64,000 nucleotides of DNA from the sequence record MZ436830.1. One strand, given 5' to 3'. Positions 54,289 to 63,884 of this stretch are shown piece after piece (the first letter of the stretch is position 1; the number at the start of each line of letters is the position of its first letter). The notes under the pieces were generated by a model. It was not told the DNA's origin. It ran no database searches and was given only the letters and a program-made list of their open reading frames with translations. The position numbers were made by a program, and so were the translations under genes. Source of the DNA: Escherichia phage JK1.

Positions 54289-56346
54289 CTACATCTTGAA
54301 CTTTTTAGACATTCCGTTGATGTTAACCAAAGAAGCCAAGATTTGAGAAACTTCGTTTTCCTCTTCTTTTGATTCTTCTACAAGGAATTGATTAAATCCA
54401 GCCATTGGACGAACTTCACCAGTTTCCATTAAATGGTCGCCATCATATACTGATTCTTCTAATTGTTCAGAAGGAGGAACGATTGTACCTTCTATTAGAT
54501 ACTTGTTATAAGCAGTTTCTTTCATAAAGTACGTGCTCACTTTATTAATCTTCAGTAAAATTCCACGCGGTAGAATAACTTCAGCTTCTGATGGAAATCC
54601 TGATAAATGACCTGGAACGATAACTTTGATTCGCTCAGCTCCTTTAATTACCATACCCACGCTAGTTTCAGCATCTTCATTAGCATATGTAGAATGACTA
54701 CCCATATGCATCAAATCTTCTGCATCAACGGAACCTTCTCCTTCACCAGAAAATACTGCGCCGGAATCATCTAGAGCCATATAGTTTTTACCATGCTCAC
54801 CGAAGATATTTGGTTTAAGCGATGTGGATACGAAGTTCTTGAAATAGAACATTTTATTTTCAATGTTATGACGCAAAGTTTTAAAGGTAACTTCTTGCCC
54901 ACGATAAAGAGTAGTTCCTGGAGGAAGAACAGAACCTTTAGCAAATGCAGAATCCAACGTCTCGATGTGTTTAATAGCTCGTTCCATATATTCTTCACGG
55001 GTAGAATCAGGTTTACCTAAAAGGAACGAGTTCATTTCAACATATGAATCTGCACAATAATCTTCAATTACATCAGATTCAGCTTGGGTTAATCCTTTTG
55101 GAGTTACTTCGGTGCTTGCGTATTCATATGCCTGAGCAGCAGATTCATTAATCAATTTATAAATGCCATTCATTACAAATTGAATAATAGCTGTCTTTTC
55201 ATCTGGCGTAGCTTTAGAACCTTTAACCAAATCATTGATAATTTTCTTAATAACATCAAAGCTATTAGAAATATTAATGTCAGCAAGATCGCTTAAAATT
55301 TTATCAGTTTTATAATCAAAGAATTCTTTATTCTTTAAATATTCTTGAGAACCTTGATATGTTATATCGCTCTGCAACTTGATGGATGGATCACGTAAAC
55401 GTGCATGGGCTAATGCAATATGATTTCGGAAACTTTCTAGTTCATAATCGTTAGATTTAAAACGAGAAGCACTCCTCATACCACCGATAGCTCCTTTGCT
55501 GAAGTTTGAACCAATCTGAATAACGCCAGAGTTCATTGGTCCTTCTGCTTTATATACCGGAACTTTAGATTCAAACTCTTGATATTTCTTAGCAGCGAAG
55601 CTATCACCCTGAAGTGAAGCATCAACAGTAGAATATTGAGCTTGTGCTGCTAATCGACGACTAATTTTAGTTTTCTGAATAACAGCTTGATCCGTGCGCT
55701 TATCATTTTCTAAAGCAATAGAAGCAGCGACAGCGACAGCTTTAGGAACAGCATTACCTGTTTTAACGTCTACATAAACATCACCAACCTTTGATTCAAC
55801 TTTTGTGAATAACTCAGTTGAAATAGGAGGTACACCTGGAATGTCTTCTAAATTGGCATTTTTACGGTAAACCATAATATATGCATATTTCTTATCATAG
55901 TCCCAGATTTCCTTTAAAAGAACATATCGACCTGCTCCTTTAGTACGTACTAAACGGTCAGCAATAACTTGCATTTGACGAGCTGCGCCATTTGTTTTAC
56001 TTTTTAGTACGCGGAATAGGCATGCGTCGATTTTATACTGTTTCATTGTTTGAAGAGCAGTATCAAAAACAGCATTAATGACGCCAATTGGATTTCCACC
56101 CAAGTTTCTAAGCTTGACTAACGATAATTTCTCGTTGACACCTATCATTACGATATGCATCATTTTGTCGCCTGGCTTAACGTTTTTATTCGTATCACCG
56201 CCAGAGGTGTATGTACAAAATCTAAATCCAGGAAGAACGCTTTCTTCACCGGCTTGAATAGCAAAAATTTGTGGTATTTTATGCTTAGGATTTAAGTTAA
56301 CAACCGGCGCCGAAGCGCCGTCAAATAATTCTGTAATAAGTTCCAT
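54289..56346 (-). CDS. Alt-family ADP-ribosyltransferase paralogue (685 aa)
   Basis: N-terminus MELITELFDG... like Alt; C-terminal R-S-EXE-type elements YRGQEV, FVSTSL, EAEVILPRG; central region differs from the adjacent copy. Confidence 0.8.
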   Translation of the reverse strand: MELITELFDGASAPVVNLNPKHKIPQIFAIQAGEESVLPGFRFCTYTSGGDTNKNVKPGDKMMHIVMIGVNEKLSLVKLRNLGGNPIGVINAVFDTALQTMKQYKIDACLFRVLKSKTNGAARQMQVIADRLVRTKGAGRYVLLKEIWDYDKKYAYIMVYRKNANLEDIPGVPPISTELFTKVESKVGDVYVDVKTGNAVPKAVAVAASIALENDKRTDQAVIQKTKISRRLAAQAQYSTVDASLQGDSFAAKKYQEFESKVPVYKAEGPMNSGVIQIGSNFSKGAIGGMRSASRFKSNDYELESFRNHIALAHARLRDPSIKLQSDITYQGSQEYLKNKEFFDYKTDKILSDLADINISNSFDVIKKIINDLVKGSKATPDEKTAIIQFVMNGIYKLINESAAQAYEYASTEVTPKGLTQAESDVIEDYCADSYVEMNSFLLGKPDSTREEYMERAIKHIETLDSAFAKGSVLPPGTTLYRGQEVTFKTLRHNIENKMFYFKNFVSTSLKPNIFGEHGKNYMALDDSGAVFSGEGEGSVDAEDLMHMGSHSTYANEDAETSVGMVIKGAERIKVIVPGHLSGFPSEAEVILPRGILLKINKVSTYFMKETAYNKYLIEGTIVPPSEQLEESVYDGDHLMETGEVRPMAGFNQFLVEESKEEENEVSQILASLVNINGMSKKFKM

Positions 56347-56349
56347 GAT

Positions 56350-58443
56350 TTATCCTTGAACGAACTTGTAAGGCATGTTTGTAATATCTATGCAAGACGC
56401 AATAATTCCAAGAGATGATTCTACTTTCTGTTTAACGTTTGATGAAACAAATGATGCAAAGTCAACTTTGTCTTCTATTTCAATATCACCTGTCATTGCA
56501 ACTACTTCGCCGGTTTCCATTAGATGGTCACCGTCATAAATTACCGATTCGGTGAGTTCTTCTGTGGTCATAACTTCAGCTTGAATAAGTTTTGTATTAT
56601 TAGATGTTGTTCCGTCATTATTAGAAGCATCAGTTATTTTATTAACTTTAACCATCAATCCGCGCGGTAGAATAACTTCAGCTTCTGTTGCTATTCCTAG
56701 ACTTCCTGGATATACAACATTAACTTTATGTGCGCCGTCAATTGCCCATCCTATTTGAACTTTAACGTATTCAGGATTTTCTTTATACGCTCTTATTTCG
56801 TTTGGATTAATAGTTATTCCTTCTTCATTTTTATCAACTGTTAATTCATTGCGAGCTTCTGGTTCTAAAAGACCAATACCAGCATGTGTAATTCCAAAAC
56901 GTCCAAAAATGATAGGAGTTAAAGAAGTAGATACAAAATTTCTGAAGTAGAACACTTTATTTTTAACTAACGCTTCATATATAGGAGCAGTCATACTTTG
57001 AGCACGATAAACTGTAATGCCTTCTGGTATACGGTCACCATTTTCAAAAGCTGAATCTAAGTTATTTATAGCAGATTCAATTTCTTTTTCACTCATTACA
57101 TCATATCGTTCTGGATTGTAACGACCTAAAAGAAGATTATTGATGTCAGTATATCCTGAACCGCAATATTCTCTAATGCCACGCTTTTGTGATGGAGTAT
57201 ATTTAGAACCATCGCGGGCAATAGTAATATCAATCATTGGACCAGCACCAATTCCAGAAAAACTGTAAATCATTCGTTTGAGGAATTTAGTTTTTGCTGC
57301 GTTCCAGGAATTTTTAGTTATTTCTTCCCAGACTTCATCTGGTTGTCCTTTACGATTTTTATTATGATTAGCAAGCCATTTATCTTTATAATCTTCAAAG
57401 AATTGATTTACAGCTGCTGCGTATTTCTCTAAACATTTTATTGAAGTAGTTGGTTCATTTTTAATTGCATTAAAAATTACTTCTTTAATTTTTTCTGAAA
57501 CTTCACCGACTTGACTCATTGGAAAGAATTTATAATCATAGTGAAGTTCATCTGCCGTTCCTTCAGCAATAATTTTTGCTGCCTTTGTTTTAGAAGCTAA
57601 TGAATTAATTCCAATTTTCATTTCTTCTGCTTCGGGAATTAAAGGTGCAGTAGCTGGTTTATTAAAATTAGCTGCTGTAGATTCATACTTCTGGAATAAT
57701 TCACTTTCAAATCTAGAAGATTCCAATGACTGACTTTGTGCAATTGCTCTACGGGAAATTTTAACTTTAACGATTACAGCTTGGTCAGAACGTTTATCGT
57801 TTTCTTGCGCAATAGATGCTGCAATTGCCTCATTTTTAGTTACTTGGGCTCCAGTATCTTTATTGATATAAACATCACCAACCTTCGATTCAACCTTAGT
57901 AAAGAGTTCAGTACTAATTTCTGGAACTCCTGGAATGTCTTCTAGTGATACGTTTTTACGATGTATAAGAATATATGCATACTTTTTATCGTAATCCCAG
58001 AGTTCCTTAAGAAGGACGTATCTGCCACCTGAACGACTACGGATAAGTCTATCAGCAATAACTTGAATTTGTCGAGCTTGACCAGCGGTTTTAGACTTAA
58101 GAATACGAAGCATACAAGCATCAATTTTATATTGACGCATTGTTTGCATTGCAACAGTAAAAACTGAATTGATATAATTAATTGGGCTTGGACCAAGACC
58201 TTTCAATTTAGCAATTGAACCTTTAGCAGTTAATGTAAAAGGAACAATATGCATCATTTTGTCGCCCATTTTTAAATCACGATTAGTATCACCTCCAGAT
58301 GTATAGGTACATAAACGAAAGCCTGGTTGTTCAATTGCATCATCAACATGAACTGAAAAAATTTGTGGTATTTTCTTCTTTGGATTTAAGTTTGTAATCG
58401 GAAGAGTAGTATCTTCGTCAAATAATTCTGTAATGAGTTCCAT
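56350..58443 (-). CDS. alt: Alt ADP-ribosyltransferase (packaged, injected); likely T4 alt orthologue
   Basis: ORF track 56350..58446; second ATG preferred for SD spacing; MELITELFDEDTTLPITNL...; YRAQSM, FVSTSL, EAEVILPRG motifs; 697 aa. Confidence 0.85.
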   Translation of the reverse strand: MELITELFDEDTTLPITNLNPKKKIPQIFSVHVDDAIEQPGFRLCTYTSGGDTNRDLKMGDKMMHIVPFTLTAKGSIAKLKGLGPSPINYINSVFTVAMQTMRQYKIDACMLRILKSKTAGQARQIQVIADRLIRSRSGGRYVLLKELWDYDKKYAYILIHRKNVSLEDIPGVPEISTELFTKVESKVGDVYINKDTGAQVTKNEAIAASIAQENDKRSDQAVIVKVKISRRAIAQSQSLESSRFESELFQKYESTAANFNKPATAPLIPEAEEMKIGINSLASKTKAAKIIAEGTADELHYDYKFFPMSQVGEVSEKIKEVIFNAIKNEPTTSIKCLEKYAAAVNQFFEDYKDKWLANHNKNRKGQPDEVWEEITKNSWNAAKTKFLKRMIYSFSGIGAGPMIDITIARDGSKYTPSQKRGIREYCGSGYTDINNLLLGRYNPERYDVMSEKEIESAINNLDSAFENGDRIPEGITVYRAQSMTAPIYEALVKNKVFYFRNFVSTSLTPIIFGRFGITHAGIGLLEPEARNELTVDKNEEGITINPNEIRAYKENPEYVKVQIGWAIDGAHKVNVVYPGSLGIATEAEVILPRGLMVKVNKITDASNNDGTTSNNTKLIQAEVMTTEELTESVIYDGDHLMETGEVVAMTGDIEIEDKVDFASFVSSNVKQKVESSLGIIASCIDITNMPYKFVQG

Positions 58444-58476
58444 CATATCCTCTCTAGTGTTTATTCTATTTATAAA

Positions 58477-58492
58477 ATTAAAGGCCCGAAGG
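58477..58492 (-). terminator. hairpin AGGCC-CGAA-GGCCT after the 58496..58684 gene
   Basis: On minus strand the stem-loop is followed by TTTAATTTTAT. Confidence 0.5.
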
Positions 58493-58495
58493 CCT

Positions 58496-58684
58496 TTAAT
58501 AATCTATTGGTAAGAGAGTACGATATATTTCAAACTTTGGACCTTTTTCATAGGCATCAAATGTTTCTGTGAATTTATTATAAGCATATGCATCTATAAA
58601 TTCAATCATGATTTGTGATACAGAAGTAGAAACATCTCCACCTTCTTTTTGAGCCACGACAATTGTTTCTAAGTAAGCTTTCAT
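58496..58684 (-). CDS. hypothetical small protein
   Basis: ORF track 62 aa; 4-nt overlap with the ligase gene upstream. Confidence 0.55.
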   Translation of the reverse strand: MKAYLETIVVAQKEGGDVSTSVSQIMIEFIDAYAYNKFTETFDAYEKGPKFEIYRTLLPIDY

Positions 58685-60144
58685 AGACCAGTTACCTCAT
58701 GAAAATCACCAAATACATCTTCGAATGTATTAGCTTTAGTTTTATCTTCACGCAAACGAATCGCAATTGGAAGAAATAATTTAACGTAATCAGTGCGGCC
58801 ATCGGATTTTAACCAACCGTTGCATTCGCACTCTAGAATTTTTCCAATATAATAATTTTGGTTTTCCATAATGCGAGTACGGTCAAGTTCATGTGATTTT
58901 ACGCCGGCTTTATCTTTTAAGCCTGAACCGGCATTTACCTTAATTTTTCCACACTCTGACTCAAGAATAAATCCACCTGCTTTAGTAGGGTCTTTACGGT
59001 GAGGATAAATTCCTACAATTTTTAAATCAACATCAATTACTTCTTTAAATTTATAGAGATTTTTTGAACGAGCATTTTCCCATAATCCATCGATATTTTT
59101 GAGAATAATACCTTCAAGACCTTGATCAATATACTTTTTGTAAATTACCTTAGCTTCATCTAGGTTATTTACTACTTGGTTTTCAATTAAAATTACTTTA
59201 TCATAGCCTGATGTCATTTGTTCTAGTTTAGAAAAACGTACATCATACTTTAAACGAAATGCAGGAAGACCATATATTTCTACTAATGGAACATAATCCC
59301 AGACCTGAAACTTCATGCATTGTGCTTCTTTTTCGGAAATGGTTCCCTTTAAAGATTTATTAGCGATTCCATTAGAAGTAGTACGTGATTCAGCTACTTC
59401 GGCGAATTCTTTAGCTTTACTAATTTCAGGATAAGCATCAAAAAGAAAATCTAGGCCTTCTGGCTCCTTTTTAACTTGCTCATGGTATACCAATTCGCCA
59501 TCAATTAACACACCTTCTGGATGAATCTGGCGGGCTTCAGCGGTCATTTTGATTAACTCTTCCTTAAGAAGATCTAATCCTAGATATTCATTACCAGCTC
59601 GTGATAAAAGACGGACATCATCTAATTCATCACCTCTAACTTCAGCAAAACACCGAGCTCCATCTGCTTTTAATTGTGCAAAGGCTGGAAATTTGATATT
59701 CTTACTAATGCCTTTTTCATCATAAGAACTTGCGAGCATTTGAGGTTGTTCAGGAATTAAACCTGGCCAAACTTTGTTTGCAATAGATACTGAAGCACCA
59801 CATTCAAGGTCTCGCATCATCACTCGACGCAAAACTTCAACATCATCTTTTTTACCATCGGTGATATATCCAGTTAATTCCTCAATTGCCGCATTTCCAG
59901 TCAATTTCCGAGTAGCTAACGTGAATTCAATGAAGTCAAGCATATCGGTAAGAGTCAACATTCCAAAACTCTGGGTAGCAATACCAGGTTTAGGCCATTT
60001 CTTGATATAATACTGTAACCCACGAGAATAAGTCAGACGATATACTCGTTTAAGCAATTCATTATCTTTATTCTTTTCAAGAATTGCTTGCTTCTGCTTA
60101 GTTGAACCAATAGATGCTATTTCGTTCAGAATTTTAAGAATCAT
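58681..60144 (-). CDS. 30: gp30 ATP-dependent DNA ligase
   Basis: 487 aa MILKILNEIASIGSTKQKQAILEKN...; adenylation motif KADGAR; T4 DNA ligase. Confidence 0.97.
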   Translation of the reverse strand: MILKILNEIASIGSTKQKQAILEKNKDNELLKRVYRLTYSRGLQYYIKKWPKPGIATQSFGMLTLTDMLDFIEFTLATRKLTGNAAIEELTGYITDGKKDDVEVLRRVMMRDLECGASVSIANKVWPGLIPEQPQMLASSYDEKGISKNIKFPAFAQLKADGARCFAEVRGDELDDVRLLSRAGNEYLGLDLLKEELIKMTAEARQIHPEGVLIDGELVYHEQVKKEPEGLDFLFDAYPEISKAKEFAEVAESRTTSNGIANKSLKGTISEKEAQCMKFQVWDYVPLVEIYGLPAFRLKYDVRFSKLEQMTSGYDKVILIENQVVNNLDEAKVIYKKYIDQGLEGIILKNIDGLWENARSKNLYKFKEVIDVDLKIVGIYPHRKDPTKAGGFILESECGKIKVNAGSGLKDKAGVKSHELDRTRIMENQNYYIGKILECECNGWLKSDGRTDYVKLFLPIAIRLREDKTKANTFEDVFGDFHEVTGL

Positions 60145-60410
60145 TGTTCATCCTTTAGAGTTTGGTTTACAGCTCTATTATAAATCAATTCATCATTAAG
60201 CTCAGTCAAAGACCTGTGGTACGTTGTTCTAACTTTATTTCCTTGCATCCAGTGCTTGACGTAAATGAAACCTTGCTCTACACATTTTTTAAAAATTCGT
60301 TCGTCTTTTTGAGCTCGGAATTCTGGATTGCATCTAAAAAATTGATTTACGTGACCGTAATCACGTGTAGTATTACCTTCATTTTCATAAATAGTGTGAA
60401 CGACAAACAT
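60141..60410 (-). CDS. hypothetical protein (30.1-like by position)
   Basis: ORF track 89 aa. Confidence 0.6.
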   Translation of the reverse strand: MFVVHTIYENEGNTTRDYGHVNQFFRCNPEFRAQKDERIFKKCVEQGFIYVKHWMQGNKVRTTYHRSLTELNDELIYNRAVNQTLKDEQ

Positions 60411-61249
60411 TAGAATGCTCCTTGGAAAATATTATCACCACTAGTAGGTCTATTATACAAATACTCTATGCCACCAGGTTTAATATAGTTCCATGTCTGA
60501 AACGGATGTGTCTGATATGGATGATATAGATGATTATAAGGATTAAATCCAGGAGTTCTCCAGGTAGTGTTCCAAGGAAAAGAATCGTTTTTGATCATCT
60601 TCTCAATTACATCTTTTATAAATTTTTCACTATCAAAACTTTCTTTATTTTCCTTCGATGGAAAAAGCTTATTCTCTACATCATTCCATGTATAAACTCG
60701 CTGTGCAGTTTTTGGAATACTGTCACGCTCTCCTCGAGCCATCCAATAAACTGGAACATTTAATATTTCACTCGCATGATCGCAGTGGTGAGCGAGATCG
60801 TCAATATAACAAATTACGTTATATTTCTCTTTTGCCTTTTTGAACAACTCTTCTTTTGAAGAATCATGGCCACACATCAATACTTCTGAGAAGGCACCAG
60901 GAAAAAGAGCATTCAAATTAAATTGACGATTCAGCAGAGCGTCAATAGAATCACCCAATGCTGTAACAGCTACAAAATTATAATCTTCTTTTAATTTGTT
61001 AATTACACACAGAGCATCTTTATATGGAGACAAGTAACGAATAAAATCTGAACGATTATATTTTTCAATTAACTTGACACCAAGTTCTTCATCGCAATTA
61101 AAGAGCTTACCAGGAGAAATAAATTTTTCGTCCTGAATCATTTTTAAAATATGTTCTAATGGAAGATTATATTTTTGGGCAAAATAAGGAAGACCTGATT
61201 GCCAGCTTAAACATACACCATCAATATCAGTCAAAATAGTAGGCTTCAT
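60410..61249 (-). CDS. HAD-superfamily hydrolase-like protein (30.2-like by position)
   Basis: 279 aa; N-terminal ILTDIDGV resembles HAD motif I (DxDG), later ICYIDD acidic motif. Confidence 0.6.
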   Translation of the reverse strand: MKPTILTDIDGVCLSWQSGLPYFAQKYNLPLEHILKMIQDEKFISPGKLFNCDEELGVKLIEKYNRSDFIRYLSPYKDALCVINKLKEDYNFVAVTALGDSIDALLNRQFNLNALFPGAFSEVLMCGHDSSKEELFKKAKEKYNVICYIDDLAHHCDHASEILNVPVYWMARGERDSIPKTAQRVYTWNDVENKLFPSKENKESFDSEKFIKDVIEKMIKNDSFPWNTTWRTPGFNPYNHLYHPYQTHPFQTWNYIKPGGIEYLYNRPTSGDNIFQGAF

Positions 61250-61710
61250 AGAGAGTCTCTTAGTAGGTTTAACACATCAATAAATTCAGCTTCGGTTAGT
61301 ATTGTATCATCTTTTGTTAGACCACTAGCCATGCTGTGCTTCAAAACTTTTCCTTTCGAGGCTTGTAATGCATCACGAAAGCCCTTGTTTTGGATCGCTG
61401 CTTCAAAATATGCATTTGTGTATAATTCTTTCCACGCCGGGGAGTATCTTGAAAACGGAACTCCGAGCCAGAAGAGGGTCCCACGGTCCTGAGCTCTTGC
61501 ATAAGACCTTCCAGCTTGCTGTGCGGCAAGCCCGGATAACCCAAATATACGACGTTGTTGTTCAACATTTTTCACCTTGCACCCTTGGAGGAATCCTTCA
61601 AGACCTCCAAATTGAATACCATCCATAACGAAAGGCCATTTGGCGAAATTACTTAATGCACATGATGGCCACCTAAAATTGCTTCTAATCTCTAACTCAG
61701 ACATTTTCAA
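61246..61710 (-). CDS. NADAR/YbiA-like (DUF1768) domain protein (30.3-like by position)
   Basis: 154 aa; LSNFAKWPFVMDGIQFGGLEGFLQGCKV parallels the YbiA core SNFA-WP-DG...E..Q..K as recalled. Confidence 0.55.
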   Translation of the reverse strand: MKMSELEIRSNFRWPSCALSNFAKWPFVMDGIQFGGLEGFLQGCKVKNVEQQRRIFGLSGLAAQQAGRSYARAQDRGTLFWLGVPFSRYSPAWKELYTNAYFEAAIQNKGFRDALQASKGKVLKHSMASGLTKDDTILTEAEFIDVLNLLRDSL

Positions 61711-61903
61711 TGCTTATAATTTCAACATCAGCCCAATGACCATAGCAAGGAAGACGAAATTCAACTGGCCAGTTAGGGTCCTTTTCTAATATAATAGACT
61801 TAACTTGTGGTTCTTCATGTTCATCAGTATATGGATTTTTATCTGTTACTTTATATGTGACCTTAATGTACTGAATTCCAAAAATCTTATTAATTATATT
61901 CAT
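61697..61903 (-). CDS. hypothetical small protein
   Basis: ORF track 68 aa, in 30.x string. Confidence 0.5.
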   Translation of the reverse strand: MNIINKIFGIQYIKVTYKVTDKNPYTDEHEEPQVKSIILEKDPNWPVEFRLPCYGHWADVEIISIENV

Positions 61904-62097
61904 ACTAGTTCCTTTAATCCGTAAATAGGAGATAATTCATCACCCATACGAAGGTCTTCATTTCCATCTACCCAGGAAACAATATAAGCCTCTTTTATTT
62001 GAACACCACTCCATTTAAATGGAGGTAGAACCTTAGAAATTAATCCAGGTATACCAACTCCCTTTAATTCAACAGTTTGACCTAAAAAGAATTTCAT
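61900..62097 (-). CDS. hypothetical small protein
   Basis: ORF track 65 aa; 4-nt overlaps with neighbours. Confidence 0.5.
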   Translation of the reverse strand: MKFFLGQTVELKGVGIPGLISKVLPPFKWSGVQIKEAYIVSWVDGNEDLRMGDELSPIYGLKELV

Positions 62098-62384
62098 TAG
62101 AACCTCATCTGAAAACCGTGCGATTTAACATTACCGCCGCCAATATCAGAAATGTTAATTTCACGCGCAATTGAAGGGTCAATGTCAATTTCGCGATTGA
62201 GTTTAGTGATAGCTAAAGTATCACGCCCATTTACAGTACGGAATTCTAAAGGACAAACCACATCAACGTAATTTTTAATCGATTCACTGGTAGGTTGCAA
62301 ATGAGCAGGAAGGTCTTTGGGCGCCTTTGAGAAAACCACTTCACAGAAATTTTTACGGGTATCAAAATAAGTAGTCATAAACAT
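62097..62384 (-). CDS. hypothetical protein
   Basis: ORF track 95 aa; GAGGAAAA SD upstream. Confidence 0.55.
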   Translation of the reverse strand: MFMTTYFDTRKNFCEVVFSKAPKDLPAHLQPTSESIKNYVDVVCPLEFRTVNGRDTLAITKLNREIDIDPSIAREINISDIGGGNVKSHGFQMRF

Positions 62385-62401
62385 GGTATTTTCCTCAGTA
62401 A

Positions 62402-62415
62402 GGGGCCGAAGCCCC
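62402..62415 (-). terminator. GGGGC-CGAA-GCCCC hairpin between two 30.x genes
   Basis: Third copy of AGGGGCCGAAGCCCCT; lies between the stop at 62426 and the start at 62384. Confidence 0.4.
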
Positions 62416-62425
62416 TCATTTTATT

Positions 62426-62803
62426 TTAAATATCAAATTCATTAAGAACTACATCAAAGATTGCTTCGAGATGTTCAGGTTTAGCTCTGTTACTCAGAAT
62501 ATGACGAATCCAAGTTTTAACCAAAAGCTTGCGATTAGCACCATTCCAACAAGGATGAGTCCCTAAATCGCGTTGACGGAAATCATCATCCAGAGCGATT
62601 TTAAAGTTGGAACCTTCCATTGTGATTGAAACCGTGATGCCATTTTCAAATCGCATATAAACGTAATTAGGAGTCATATACTGTTCAATTTCGCATACTG
62701 ATCCATTTTGATGTTTCCAAAGGCAGATAGTATCAATAGAACCTGCAATACCATTAGAAACATATTTACGTTCAAAGTTGATGTAGTTCATTTTATTCTC
62801 CAA
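62426..62803 (-). CDS. hypothetical protein
   Basis: ORF track 125 aa. Confidence 0.55.
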   Translation of the reverse strand: MENKMNYINFERKYVSNGIAGSIDTICLWKHQNGSVCEIEQYMTPNYVYMRFENGITVSITMEGSNFKIALDDDFRQRDLGTHPCWNGANRKLLVKTWIRHILSNRAKPEHLEAIFDVVLNEFDI

Positions 62804-62860
62804 GATGTTTAATTGCGGTACAGGTATATAATATCATATCCTGTACCAAAGTAAACTATT

Positions 62861-63229
62861 TTATGCAACTTTAATCCAATTATCTAAATTTAATTCACCT
62901 TTGGCTTTCATTTTTTCAATCAAGAGGTCAGCGGTAATACGACCATTTTGATACCACGTAACATCTTCAGAGTAACCAGTTTCTTTATCTTCATAAGTCT
63001 CACAACGAATTTTACCAATAATCAAAGTTTTCAATTCGTATGTATCTCCAGTAAAAAAGTTAGTTAACATTATTTTCCAAGAGAAATCATCAGAAGGACC
63101 TTCAGGAGTCATGCAACCTACAAATTCAAATTGTTCTTTGTATAAGTGCCACTGAAGTTCTTTAGTTTCGATAGCTTTATAGCCGTCGTGATCTTTACCT
63201 TTGATGTATGAGTTAAGATTGATTTTCAT
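62861..63229 (-). CDS. hypothetical protein
   Basis: ORF track 122 aa. Confidence 0.55.
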   Translation of the reverse strand: MKINLNSYIKGKDHDGYKAIETKELQWHLYKEQFEFVGCMTPEGPSDDFSWKIMLTNFFTGDTYELKTLIIGKIRCETYEDKETGYSEDVTWYQNGRITADLLIEKMKAKGELNLDNWIKVA

Positions 63230-63315
63230 TTTATTCTCCTTTGTTTGTGTAAGATAATACTATCACAAAGGAACTATACTGTAAACAACTTTATGCAATC
63301 TTTGGAAAATAAAAA

Positions 63316-63335
63316 AGGACTCCCGAAGGAGTCCT
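63316..63335 (-). terminator. rho-independent terminator after the 63340..63516 gene
   Basis: GGACTCC-CGAA-GGAGTCC hairpin; on minus followed by TTTTTTATTTT. Confidence 0.7.
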
Positions 63336-63339
63336 CAAC

Positions 63340-63516
63340 TTATGCTTTCTGCTTACCAAAACGAGAAGCATCATCTCGAAGAACCGCACGTGCTCGACGC
63401 ATGATCTTCTCAACAGTTTGATTAATACGAGAGTTCGACCCACGCTTGTAGCCAGCGCGTTTAGAATCACCAACTTTCTTTTCAACTGCTTTCTTTGCTT
63501 TAGCTTGTTTTGCCAT
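63340..63516 (-). CDS. small highly basic protein
   Basis: ORF track 63340..63558; start set at MAKQAKAKKAVEKK (58 aa) because the longer form has no SD; Lys/Arg-rich. Confidence 0.5.
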   Translation of the reverse strand: MAKQAKAKKAVEKKVGDSKRAGYKRGSNSRINQTVEKIMRRARAVLRDDASRFGKQKA

Positions 63517-63635
63517 TATAAATTCTCTTTTAAATGAAAATGCAGGACTTATTGGCATTGCCTGCGCAAGCCCTCAAGGGGTACTTAGGTTTTGAATATT
63601 TACCGACAGGATAACCATAAACCTCGTCAACATAA

Positions 63636-63884
63636 TTACTTCAGTGTTACCACAAAGTGACGAACTGCTTTTCGTGCAGCAGAAGCCAAAGGCTTAGCAT
63701 ATTTAAGCTCATCTTTTTCCTGGAGCTCAGCGGCTAATGCAGTTTGAGCAGGATTCAGATGTTTGAAATAACGCAGGATTTCAAGAGCTTCGGCTTCAAC
63801 ATCAATAGATGCGCCATAGTTTTCGTGACCATTATTCCATGCGTTTCGTTGCAGTTCAAGAGCGTGTTGTAATTGTTTAATCAT
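63636..63884 (-). CDS. rIII: rIII lysis inhibition accessory protein
   Basis: 82 aa MIKQLQHALELQRNAWNNGHENYGASIDVEAEALEILRYF...; T4 rIII length and position upstream of the 30.x genes. Confidence 0.85.
   Translation of the reverse strand: MIKQLQHALELQRNAWNNGHENYGASIDVEAEALEILRYFKHLNPAQTALAAELQEKDELKYAKPLASAARKAVRHFVVTLK

Follow-up and report, generated by a model that had tools for sequence, protein, structure and literature searches.

Resistance of the phages T2 and T4 to the bacterial DarTG1 defence has been mapped to gene 30.3, renamed adfN (Johannesman 2025, PMC11825919), whose product, gp30.3, was placed bioinformatically in the NADAR superfamily by De Souza and Aravind. The purified T4 protein strips ADP-ribose from guanosine, not from thymidine, in DNA (Cihlova 2024, PMC11125620). 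Upon deletion of adfN the unmodified strain T4-GT7 turns DarTG1-sensitive, and the gene is described as necessary against DarT1 during infection; the substitutions E36A and K43A weaken the rescue, and RB69 is DarTG1-sensitive owing to a frameshift that costs its AdfN the last 15 residues (PMC11825919). In the HIDEN-SEQ transposon study, insertions in 30.3 were lost on DarTG1 at a log2 fold change (log2FC) of -7.25 with an adjusted p of 0 (supplementary table). Here, we analyse the corresponding locus in Escherichia phage JK1 (MZ436830.1), in a stretch of 64,000 nucleotides that we call the window, where two neighbouring open reading frames (ORFs) had been read from the letters alone as a NADAR/YbiA-like and a HAD-like gene close to two ADP-ribosyltransferase (Alt) genes (hereafter the original prediction). 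Taken jointly, it is highly probable that gp30.3 of the window is AdfN acting against DarT1, that gp30.2 is a HAD phosphatase for which we infer the substrate class, and that the proximity of Alt reflects gene order. The observation behind the original prediction is confirmed, and its interpretation is supported in part. The chemistry, genetics and counter-defence role of AdfN are already published, and the NADAR part of our analysis adds nothing new to them.

NADAR enzymes share a conserved catalytic pair of glutamate and lysine (E88 and K95 in E. coli C7 NADAR; Schuller 2023; Cihlova 2024, PMC11125620). In AdfN these key residues are E36 and K43, which in published work contact ADP-ribose in a related NADAR structure. 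A third position differs between groups, with His marking phage NADARs, Glu the YbiA type and Asp DarG1 (PMC11543638, PMC11125620). The known NADAR substrates are ADP-ribosylated guanine (G-ADPr) on DNA or RNA and, for some NADARs with that of T4 excepted, ADP-ribosylated cytosine (C-ADPr) (PMC11125620, PMC12945103). In a 2026 paper the T4 enzyme hydrolyses G-ADPr, and phage NADARs are absent from its summary table of C-ADPr removal (PMC12945103).

The window belongs to a T4-like phage (Tequatrovirus). Tequatrovirus genomes by the hundred align to the region at 95-98.5% DNA identity, and the region is collinear with T4 (NC_000866) in the order alt, alt.1, 30 (DNA ligase), 30.1, 30.2, 30.3, 30.4 and onward, and the two ORFs are the T4 early genes 30.3 and 30.2. 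Gene 30.3, or adfN, occupies 61246..61704 on the minus strand and is predicted to encode a phage-type NADAR DNA ADP-ribosylglycohydrolase of 152 residues, a function shown for the T4 protein. The ORF finder had placed its start at a TTG at 61710, giving 154 residues; T4 annotation and alignment place it at an ATG at 61704. The window protein has the same length as T4 AdfN and lies likewise between 30.4 and 30.2. It is identical to the T4 protein at 150 of the 152 residues, the differences being Q22K and I125M, neither of them at a conserved catalytic position. Its catalytic residues are encoded at 61597-61599 (E36), 61576-61578 (K43) and 61336-61338 (H123). RB69 gp30.3 stops at residue 137, whereas the window copy is full length and free of frameshifts, with an intact C-terminal helix at residues 138-151 in the AlphaFold2 model, as in T4.

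The core NADAR motif that had been read in the 154-residue product is present, and the YbiA sequence quoted alongside it agrees with PDB 2b3w. The sister model PF08010 (Phage_30_3) matches the window protein at 234 bits, against a curated cut-off of 36. Among 52 full-length homologues of 35-88% identity, all match PF08010 and 21 also match the Pfam NADAR model PF08719 (best E = 1.5e-7), through which the link of gp30.3 to that model is transitive. E36 and H123 are invariant in these 52 sequences and K43 is conserved in at least 90%, which bears out the expectation of conserved catalytic residues. A profile built from the family recovers E. coli YbiA (2b3w, E = 0.0076) through the SNF...EGFLQ..K motif and aligns E36 and K43 with the ...sEHYFQAQKF segment of YbiA. 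The AlphaFold2 model (predicted local distance difference test, pLDDT, 93.9) has the YbiA fold of a helical core with small flanking sheets. Structure prediction had been suggested as a check, and a Foldseek search of the PDB with this model returned 2b3w, 8bau and 8bat as its top three matches at probabilities of 0.99-1.00, the next match being at 0.03. On the strength of the PF08010 and PF08719 links, the YbiA profile match, the model with its Foldseek matches and the conserved E36, K43 and H123, gp30.3 is a NADAR-superfamily protein, as had been proposed. As a side observation, the database proteins P0014, P0015, P0016, P0051 and P0094 join a gp30.3 fragment to a domain of a second Pfam family (PF11097, PF06919, PF06019, PF26911); they look like products of recombination or frameshift.

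Among characterised relatives, DarG1 (BC4488 family; Geobacter DarG1-type NADAR, 8bat) and the Phytophthora NADAR (8bau, with ADP-ribose) share with gp30.3 its fold and its Glu and Lys pair (PMC11543638) and carry out the same reaction on guanine-N2-ADPr. The phage protein differs from DarG1 in being a bare core domain that lacks the N-terminal extension, in carrying His at the position of the DarG1 Asp and of the Glu of other NADARs, in not being encoded beside a toxin, and in having no antitoxin action in uninfected cells. In structure, E. coli YbiA (2b3w, PF08719) comes closest of all matches (Foldseek E = 1.8e-4, TM 0.69), and the two proteins have the SNF...E..FQ..K motif in common at only 17% identity. 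This match, together with the published tie of YbiA-type NADARs to riboflavin metabolism (PMC11825919, PMC11125620), would fit a housekeeping N-glycosidase that acts on riboflavin-pathway intermediates and not on DNA. However, all 52 gp30.3 homologues have His in place of the family-defining Glu of YbiA (rule from PMC11543638), insertions in 30.3 have no phenotype in minimal medium (log2FC +0.12, HIDEN-SEQ), and there is direct in vitro and in vivo evidence of DNA de-ADP-ribosylation by the T4 protein. We consider the riboflavin role scarcely credible, as it is effectively refuted by the published assays.

Gene 30.2 (60410..61249, minus strand) encodes a HAD-superfamily phosphatase-like protein of 279 residues, 270 of which are identical in T4 gp30.2. 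The original prediction had called it HAD-like from a single motif, ILTDIDGV, which lies at residues 5-12. This assignment is upheld by all four HAD motifs, by the modelled core and by the modelled cap. Motif I comprises D8 and D10 (61220-61228), motif II T96 (60962-60964), motif III K132 (60854-60856) and motif IV D150 and D151 (60797-60802), all on the minus strand. Across 41 homologues D8, D10, K132, D150 and D151 are invariant and T96 is conserved in at least 90%, with motif I including G11. The AlphaFold2 model is confident over approximately residues 1-195 (block-mean pLDDT 91-98 over residues 1-190) and shows a Rossmann-like HAD core; between motifs I and II it has a C1 cap that is helical and closed. 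Core and cap together span residues 1-195 (60665..61249). The remaining residues 196-279 (60413..60664, minus strand for both parts) form an aromatic and proline-rich, poorly predicted tail with three segments of pLDDT < 50 within residues 225-279. gp30.2 is a genuine HAD-fold protein, complete in its four catalytic motifs and equipped with a cap domain.

Judged by sequence, the nearest relatives of gp30.2 appear to be the 5'(3')-deoxyribonucleotidases of HAD subfamily I (NT5C, PF06941: cdN 2jao/2i7d, mdN 1q92, 3bwv). They have in common with it the DxDGV motif I, motifs II-IV and the helical C1 cap; they differ in that the matches are weak, at 15-20% identity, and in that gp30.2 adds its 85-residue variable, poorly predicted tail. 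With an E threshold of 1, eight of the 41 homologues match PF06941 (best 1.2e-4). The family profile reaches mouse cytosolic 5'(3')-deoxyribonucleotidase (2jao) weakly, at E = 0.018, in an alignment extending from motif I into the cap, and the highest target-normalised TM-scores of the model (0.63-0.70) are to 5'(3')-deoxyribonucleotidase structures. The profile alignment pairs W16, F43 and Y64 of gp30.2 with F20, F46 and Y67 of mouse cdN, which we take to be the base-binding aromatics of cdN and mdN. We propose that gp30.2 would be a Mg-dependent HAD phosphatase with an alpha-helical C1 cap, which most likely dephosphorylates a small nucleotide-like phosphomonoester via an Asp8 phospho-enzyme intermediate. 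The tail, rich in Trp, Tyr, Phe and Pro, varies between 0 and about 150 residues among homologues and is wholly absent from many distant ones; at least three classes of tail-end motif recur, GIEYL..PT (as in the window), ...SYRNVKP.DLRAYY and ..DY.LLNK..AND.

In the mechanism that we favour, the host toxin DarT1 would ADP-ribosylate guanine N2 in replicating phage DNA, AdfN would hydrolyse the N-glycosidic bond so that ADP-ribose is released and the base restored, and this restoration would permit the phage to replicate in DarTG1-bearing hosts. That the NADAR protein might process host DarT-type modifications had been part of the original prediction, and it has been demonstrated against DarTG1 for the 99%-identical T4 AdfN (PMC11825919, PMC11125620, HIDEN-SEQ). 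The window copy is predicted to be active since it is full length with E36, K43 and H123 in place, an expectation that leans on the T4 protein, for which both the chemistry and the phenotype have been shown.

Several results weigh against this account of the two genes. On the side of gp30.3, the window protein has no match to PF08719 at E up to 1 and matches PF08010 only, so that of the suggested profile-based check the family hit and the matches of the homologues stand and the direct NADAR hit does not. Single-sequence searches of PDB sequences with gp30.3 and gp30.2 returned chance-level matches only, and profiles were therefore needed to reach PDB matches. T4 AdfN gives uninfected E. coli no protection from DarT1 (Cihlova 2024, PMC11125620), and it rescues non-T-even phages weakly, with the full effect only in T-even infections, on account of which an additional T-even factor has been postulated (PMC11825919). 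Given the lack of rescue in uninfected cells and the weak rescue of non-T-even phages, a mechanism in which the enzyme alone suffices is incomplete. On the side of gp30.2, the window protein has no Pfam or NCBIfam match at E up to 1, and the suggested profile check is borne out only through the weak PF00702 matches of 12 of the 41 homologues (best E = 3.5e-4). An NCBIfam scan of three proteins from the region likewise returned no model. Structure searches with gp30.2 do not separate a nucleotidase from other HAD subfamily I enzymes. A literature search on gp30.2 found nothing relevant, and 30.2 is without known phenotype in every condition tested: the gene is non-essential on K-12, where 72 of 72 TA sites were hit, and insertions are neutral in M9 (log2FC -0.10) and on a clinical isolate (-0.21) in the HIDEN-SEQ data.

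The original prediction had further suggested a writer-eraser arrangement with Alt. As a module, it would mean that the NADAR protein is co-located with the phage's own ADP-ribosyltransferases because it erases or tunes the marks set by Alt, ModA or ModB. Two Alt-like ORFs, of 685 residues (54289..56346) and 698 residues (56350..58446), both assigned by the T4 annotation of alt, do lie about 3 kb from the NADAR gene on the same minus strand, at the distance that had been given. In favour of such a role, the N2 amine of guanine is chemically akin, as an acceptor, to the guanidino group of arginine. Linkage across phages does not follow this pattern. Of the 80 phage loci with a NADAR gene of the gp30.3 type, only 14 have an Alt-like gene at a distance of 10 kb or less, and these belong to the phages closer to T4 and to a few more remote ones. 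The NADAR gene and the HAD-ligase-Alt block are separated by 54-69 kb in at least eight complete T4-like genomes (pairs of loci on the same contig: L042/L096, L059/L102, L068/L109, L080/L114, L056/L115, L029/L123, L041/L157, L028/L147), and the genomic position of the NADAR gene varies between lineages. Around the HAD gene, an Alt-like gene lies within 8 kb in 53 of the 67 HAD loci that have full flanks.

Genetics and substrates also speak against NADAR as an eraser of Alt marks. In the HIDEN-SEQ data, insertions in alt (log2FC -0.01), modA (+0.11) and modB (+0.13) are neutral on DarTG1, and insertions in adfN are cost-free on ordinary K-12, a host in which Alt is active. AdfN function does not depend on Alt. 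Every demonstrated NADAR substrate is a nucleic-acid base, with AdfN acting on guanine-ADPr, whereas Alt is annotated as acting on protein. A literature search for a NADAR tested on arginine-ADPr found no report. Nothing supports the eraser idea, which we regard as very unlikely; the closeness of 30.3 and 30.2 to alt most probably reflects the gene order of T4's closer relatives and not a writer-eraser module. In the window the two Alt-like genes are full-length tandem copies, whereas T4 has one alt and the remnants alt.-1 and alt.-2, described in the T4 annotation as an old partial duplication; two Alt copies are apparent in several relatives too, from separate tblastn positions for the two queries.

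Could gp30.2 itself be the postulated T-even factor, or clear the ADP-ribose released by AdfN? The stop of 30.3 overlaps the start of 30.2 (ATGA), in 20 of the 67 HAD loci the gene just upstream is a NADAR gene, and RB69, where T4 adfN works, has 30.2. Each of the two families is found in about 1,450-1,500 phage records with nearly identical host genera, and the postulate of a T-even factor (PMC11825919) itself leaves room for a partner. However, 30.2 insertions are not depleted on DarTG1 (log2FC -0.12, p = 0.61, over 71 sites; HIDEN-SEQ), compared with -7.25 for 30.3, and no functional tie between the HAD and NADAR genes is apparent. About 60 of the 80 NADAR loci lack a HAD gene within 10 kb, a gp30.2 match being present at that distance in 19, one of them weak (26% identity), and the T4 Nudix gene nudE is likewise not needed (log2FC -0.03 on DarTG1). 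A helper role for gp30.2 is thus highly improbable; the gene is dispensable and not needed for AdfN function. The two proteins look like widespread T4-like phage genes whose adjacency in T4 is a lineage matter.

On the HIDEN-SEQ DarTG1 values gp30.2 was accordingly rejected as the missing helper of AdfN, and the same data led us to reject Alt, ModA, ModB, NudE and PseT as single non-essential genes; the values for 30.1 and pseT are -0.01 and +0.01. A helper screen by insertions covers single non-essential genes, and redundant or essential helpers may exist. The pair already appears in at least one public record under the names 'putative phosphatase' and 'NADAR domain containing protein'.

What is conserved next to gp30.2 is DNA ligase and not the NADAR gene. 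A ligase gene lies directly downstream, at <= 1.5 kb and on the same strand, in 57 of the 67 HAD loci. Such linkage raises the alternative that gp30.2 is a DNA-end 3'-phosphatase which prepares nicks for the adjacent ligase, the two forming an end-healing and sealing pair. The closed helical C1 cap in the gp30.2 model tells against it, as HAD caps go with small substrates and the PNK phosphatase is capless. The sequence links of gp30.2 run to nucleotidases, T4 already has PseT, and the ligase is essential whereas 30.2 is dispensable. Moreover, T4-like gene order is broadly conserved, which makes adjacency weak evidence. We therefore hold the end-healing role to be unlikely and favour a small nucleotide-like substrate for gp30.2. 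The adjacency of HAD and ligase genes extends to distant T4-like phages of Aeromonas, Acinetobacter and Vibrio that have no 30.1, alt.1 or adjacent NADAR, and in one public record a HAD homologue is named 'DNA ligase'.

A loose end is gene 30.4 (61697..61903, minus strand), an ORF of 68 residues assigned to phrog_2042, which at its stop overlaps the start of adfN by 8 nt (ATGTCTGA). Among the genes covered from the HIDEN-SEQ DarTG1 table, which were most of it, this is the only T4 gene besides 30.3 that is significantly depleted on DarTG1 (log2FC -1.79, adjusted p 0.014); its insertions have no effect in M9 or on the clinical isolate, and the main text of the preprint is silent on it. The authors of that study argue against widespread polar effects, and their transposon carries no terminator. 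Gene 30.4 adjoins adfN, directly upstream, in T4's close relatives, RB69 included. No 30.4 was detected beside distant NADARs, in a search that is insensitive for a query of 68 residues. Because adfN lacks a good Shine-Dalgarno sequence upstream, the likeliest explanation of the depletion is lost translational coupling onto adfN, which we rank above an accessory role; that gp30.4 is the T-even-specific factor needed for full AdfN activity seems to us improbable.

Coupling may reach beyond adfN. From 58496 to 61903, the genes 30.4, 30.3, 30.2, 30.1, 30 and alt.1 form an unbroken chain of stop/start overlaps, with the junctions ATGTCTGA, ATGA, TAATG, ATGA and ATGA in order from 30.4 to alt.1, and this chain suggests translational coupling along the block, the essential ligase included. 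Gene 30.1 (60141..60410, minus strand; 89 residues, DUF3045, PF11243 at E = 2.9e-64) overlaps both the 30.2 stop (TAATG) and the ligase start (ATGA), and gene 30, the ATP-dependent DNA ligase identified from its ORF and the T4 annotation, follows at 58681..60144 on the same strand. A scan of 58300-63700 for sigma-70 promoters and terminators found no excess over shuffled sequence and gave no usable transcription-unit boundaries. Inside adfN, an out-of-frame ORF annotated in T4 as 30.3' (61341..61568, minus strand; 75 residues) has an uninterrupted frame in 11 of the 12 relatives compared, which reach down to 84-86% identity in AdfN, and its ATG is replaced in 8 of the 12.

For the biology of this phage, an intact adfN, unlike that of RB69, implies that it should plate on DarTG1-bearing hosts. 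For the gp30.2 family, the fold, the catalytic residues, the nucleotidase-like cap, the dispensability and the ligase linkage narrow the biochemical screen for its function. The negative result on Alt keeps an attractive but unsupported writer-eraser annotation from being propagated.

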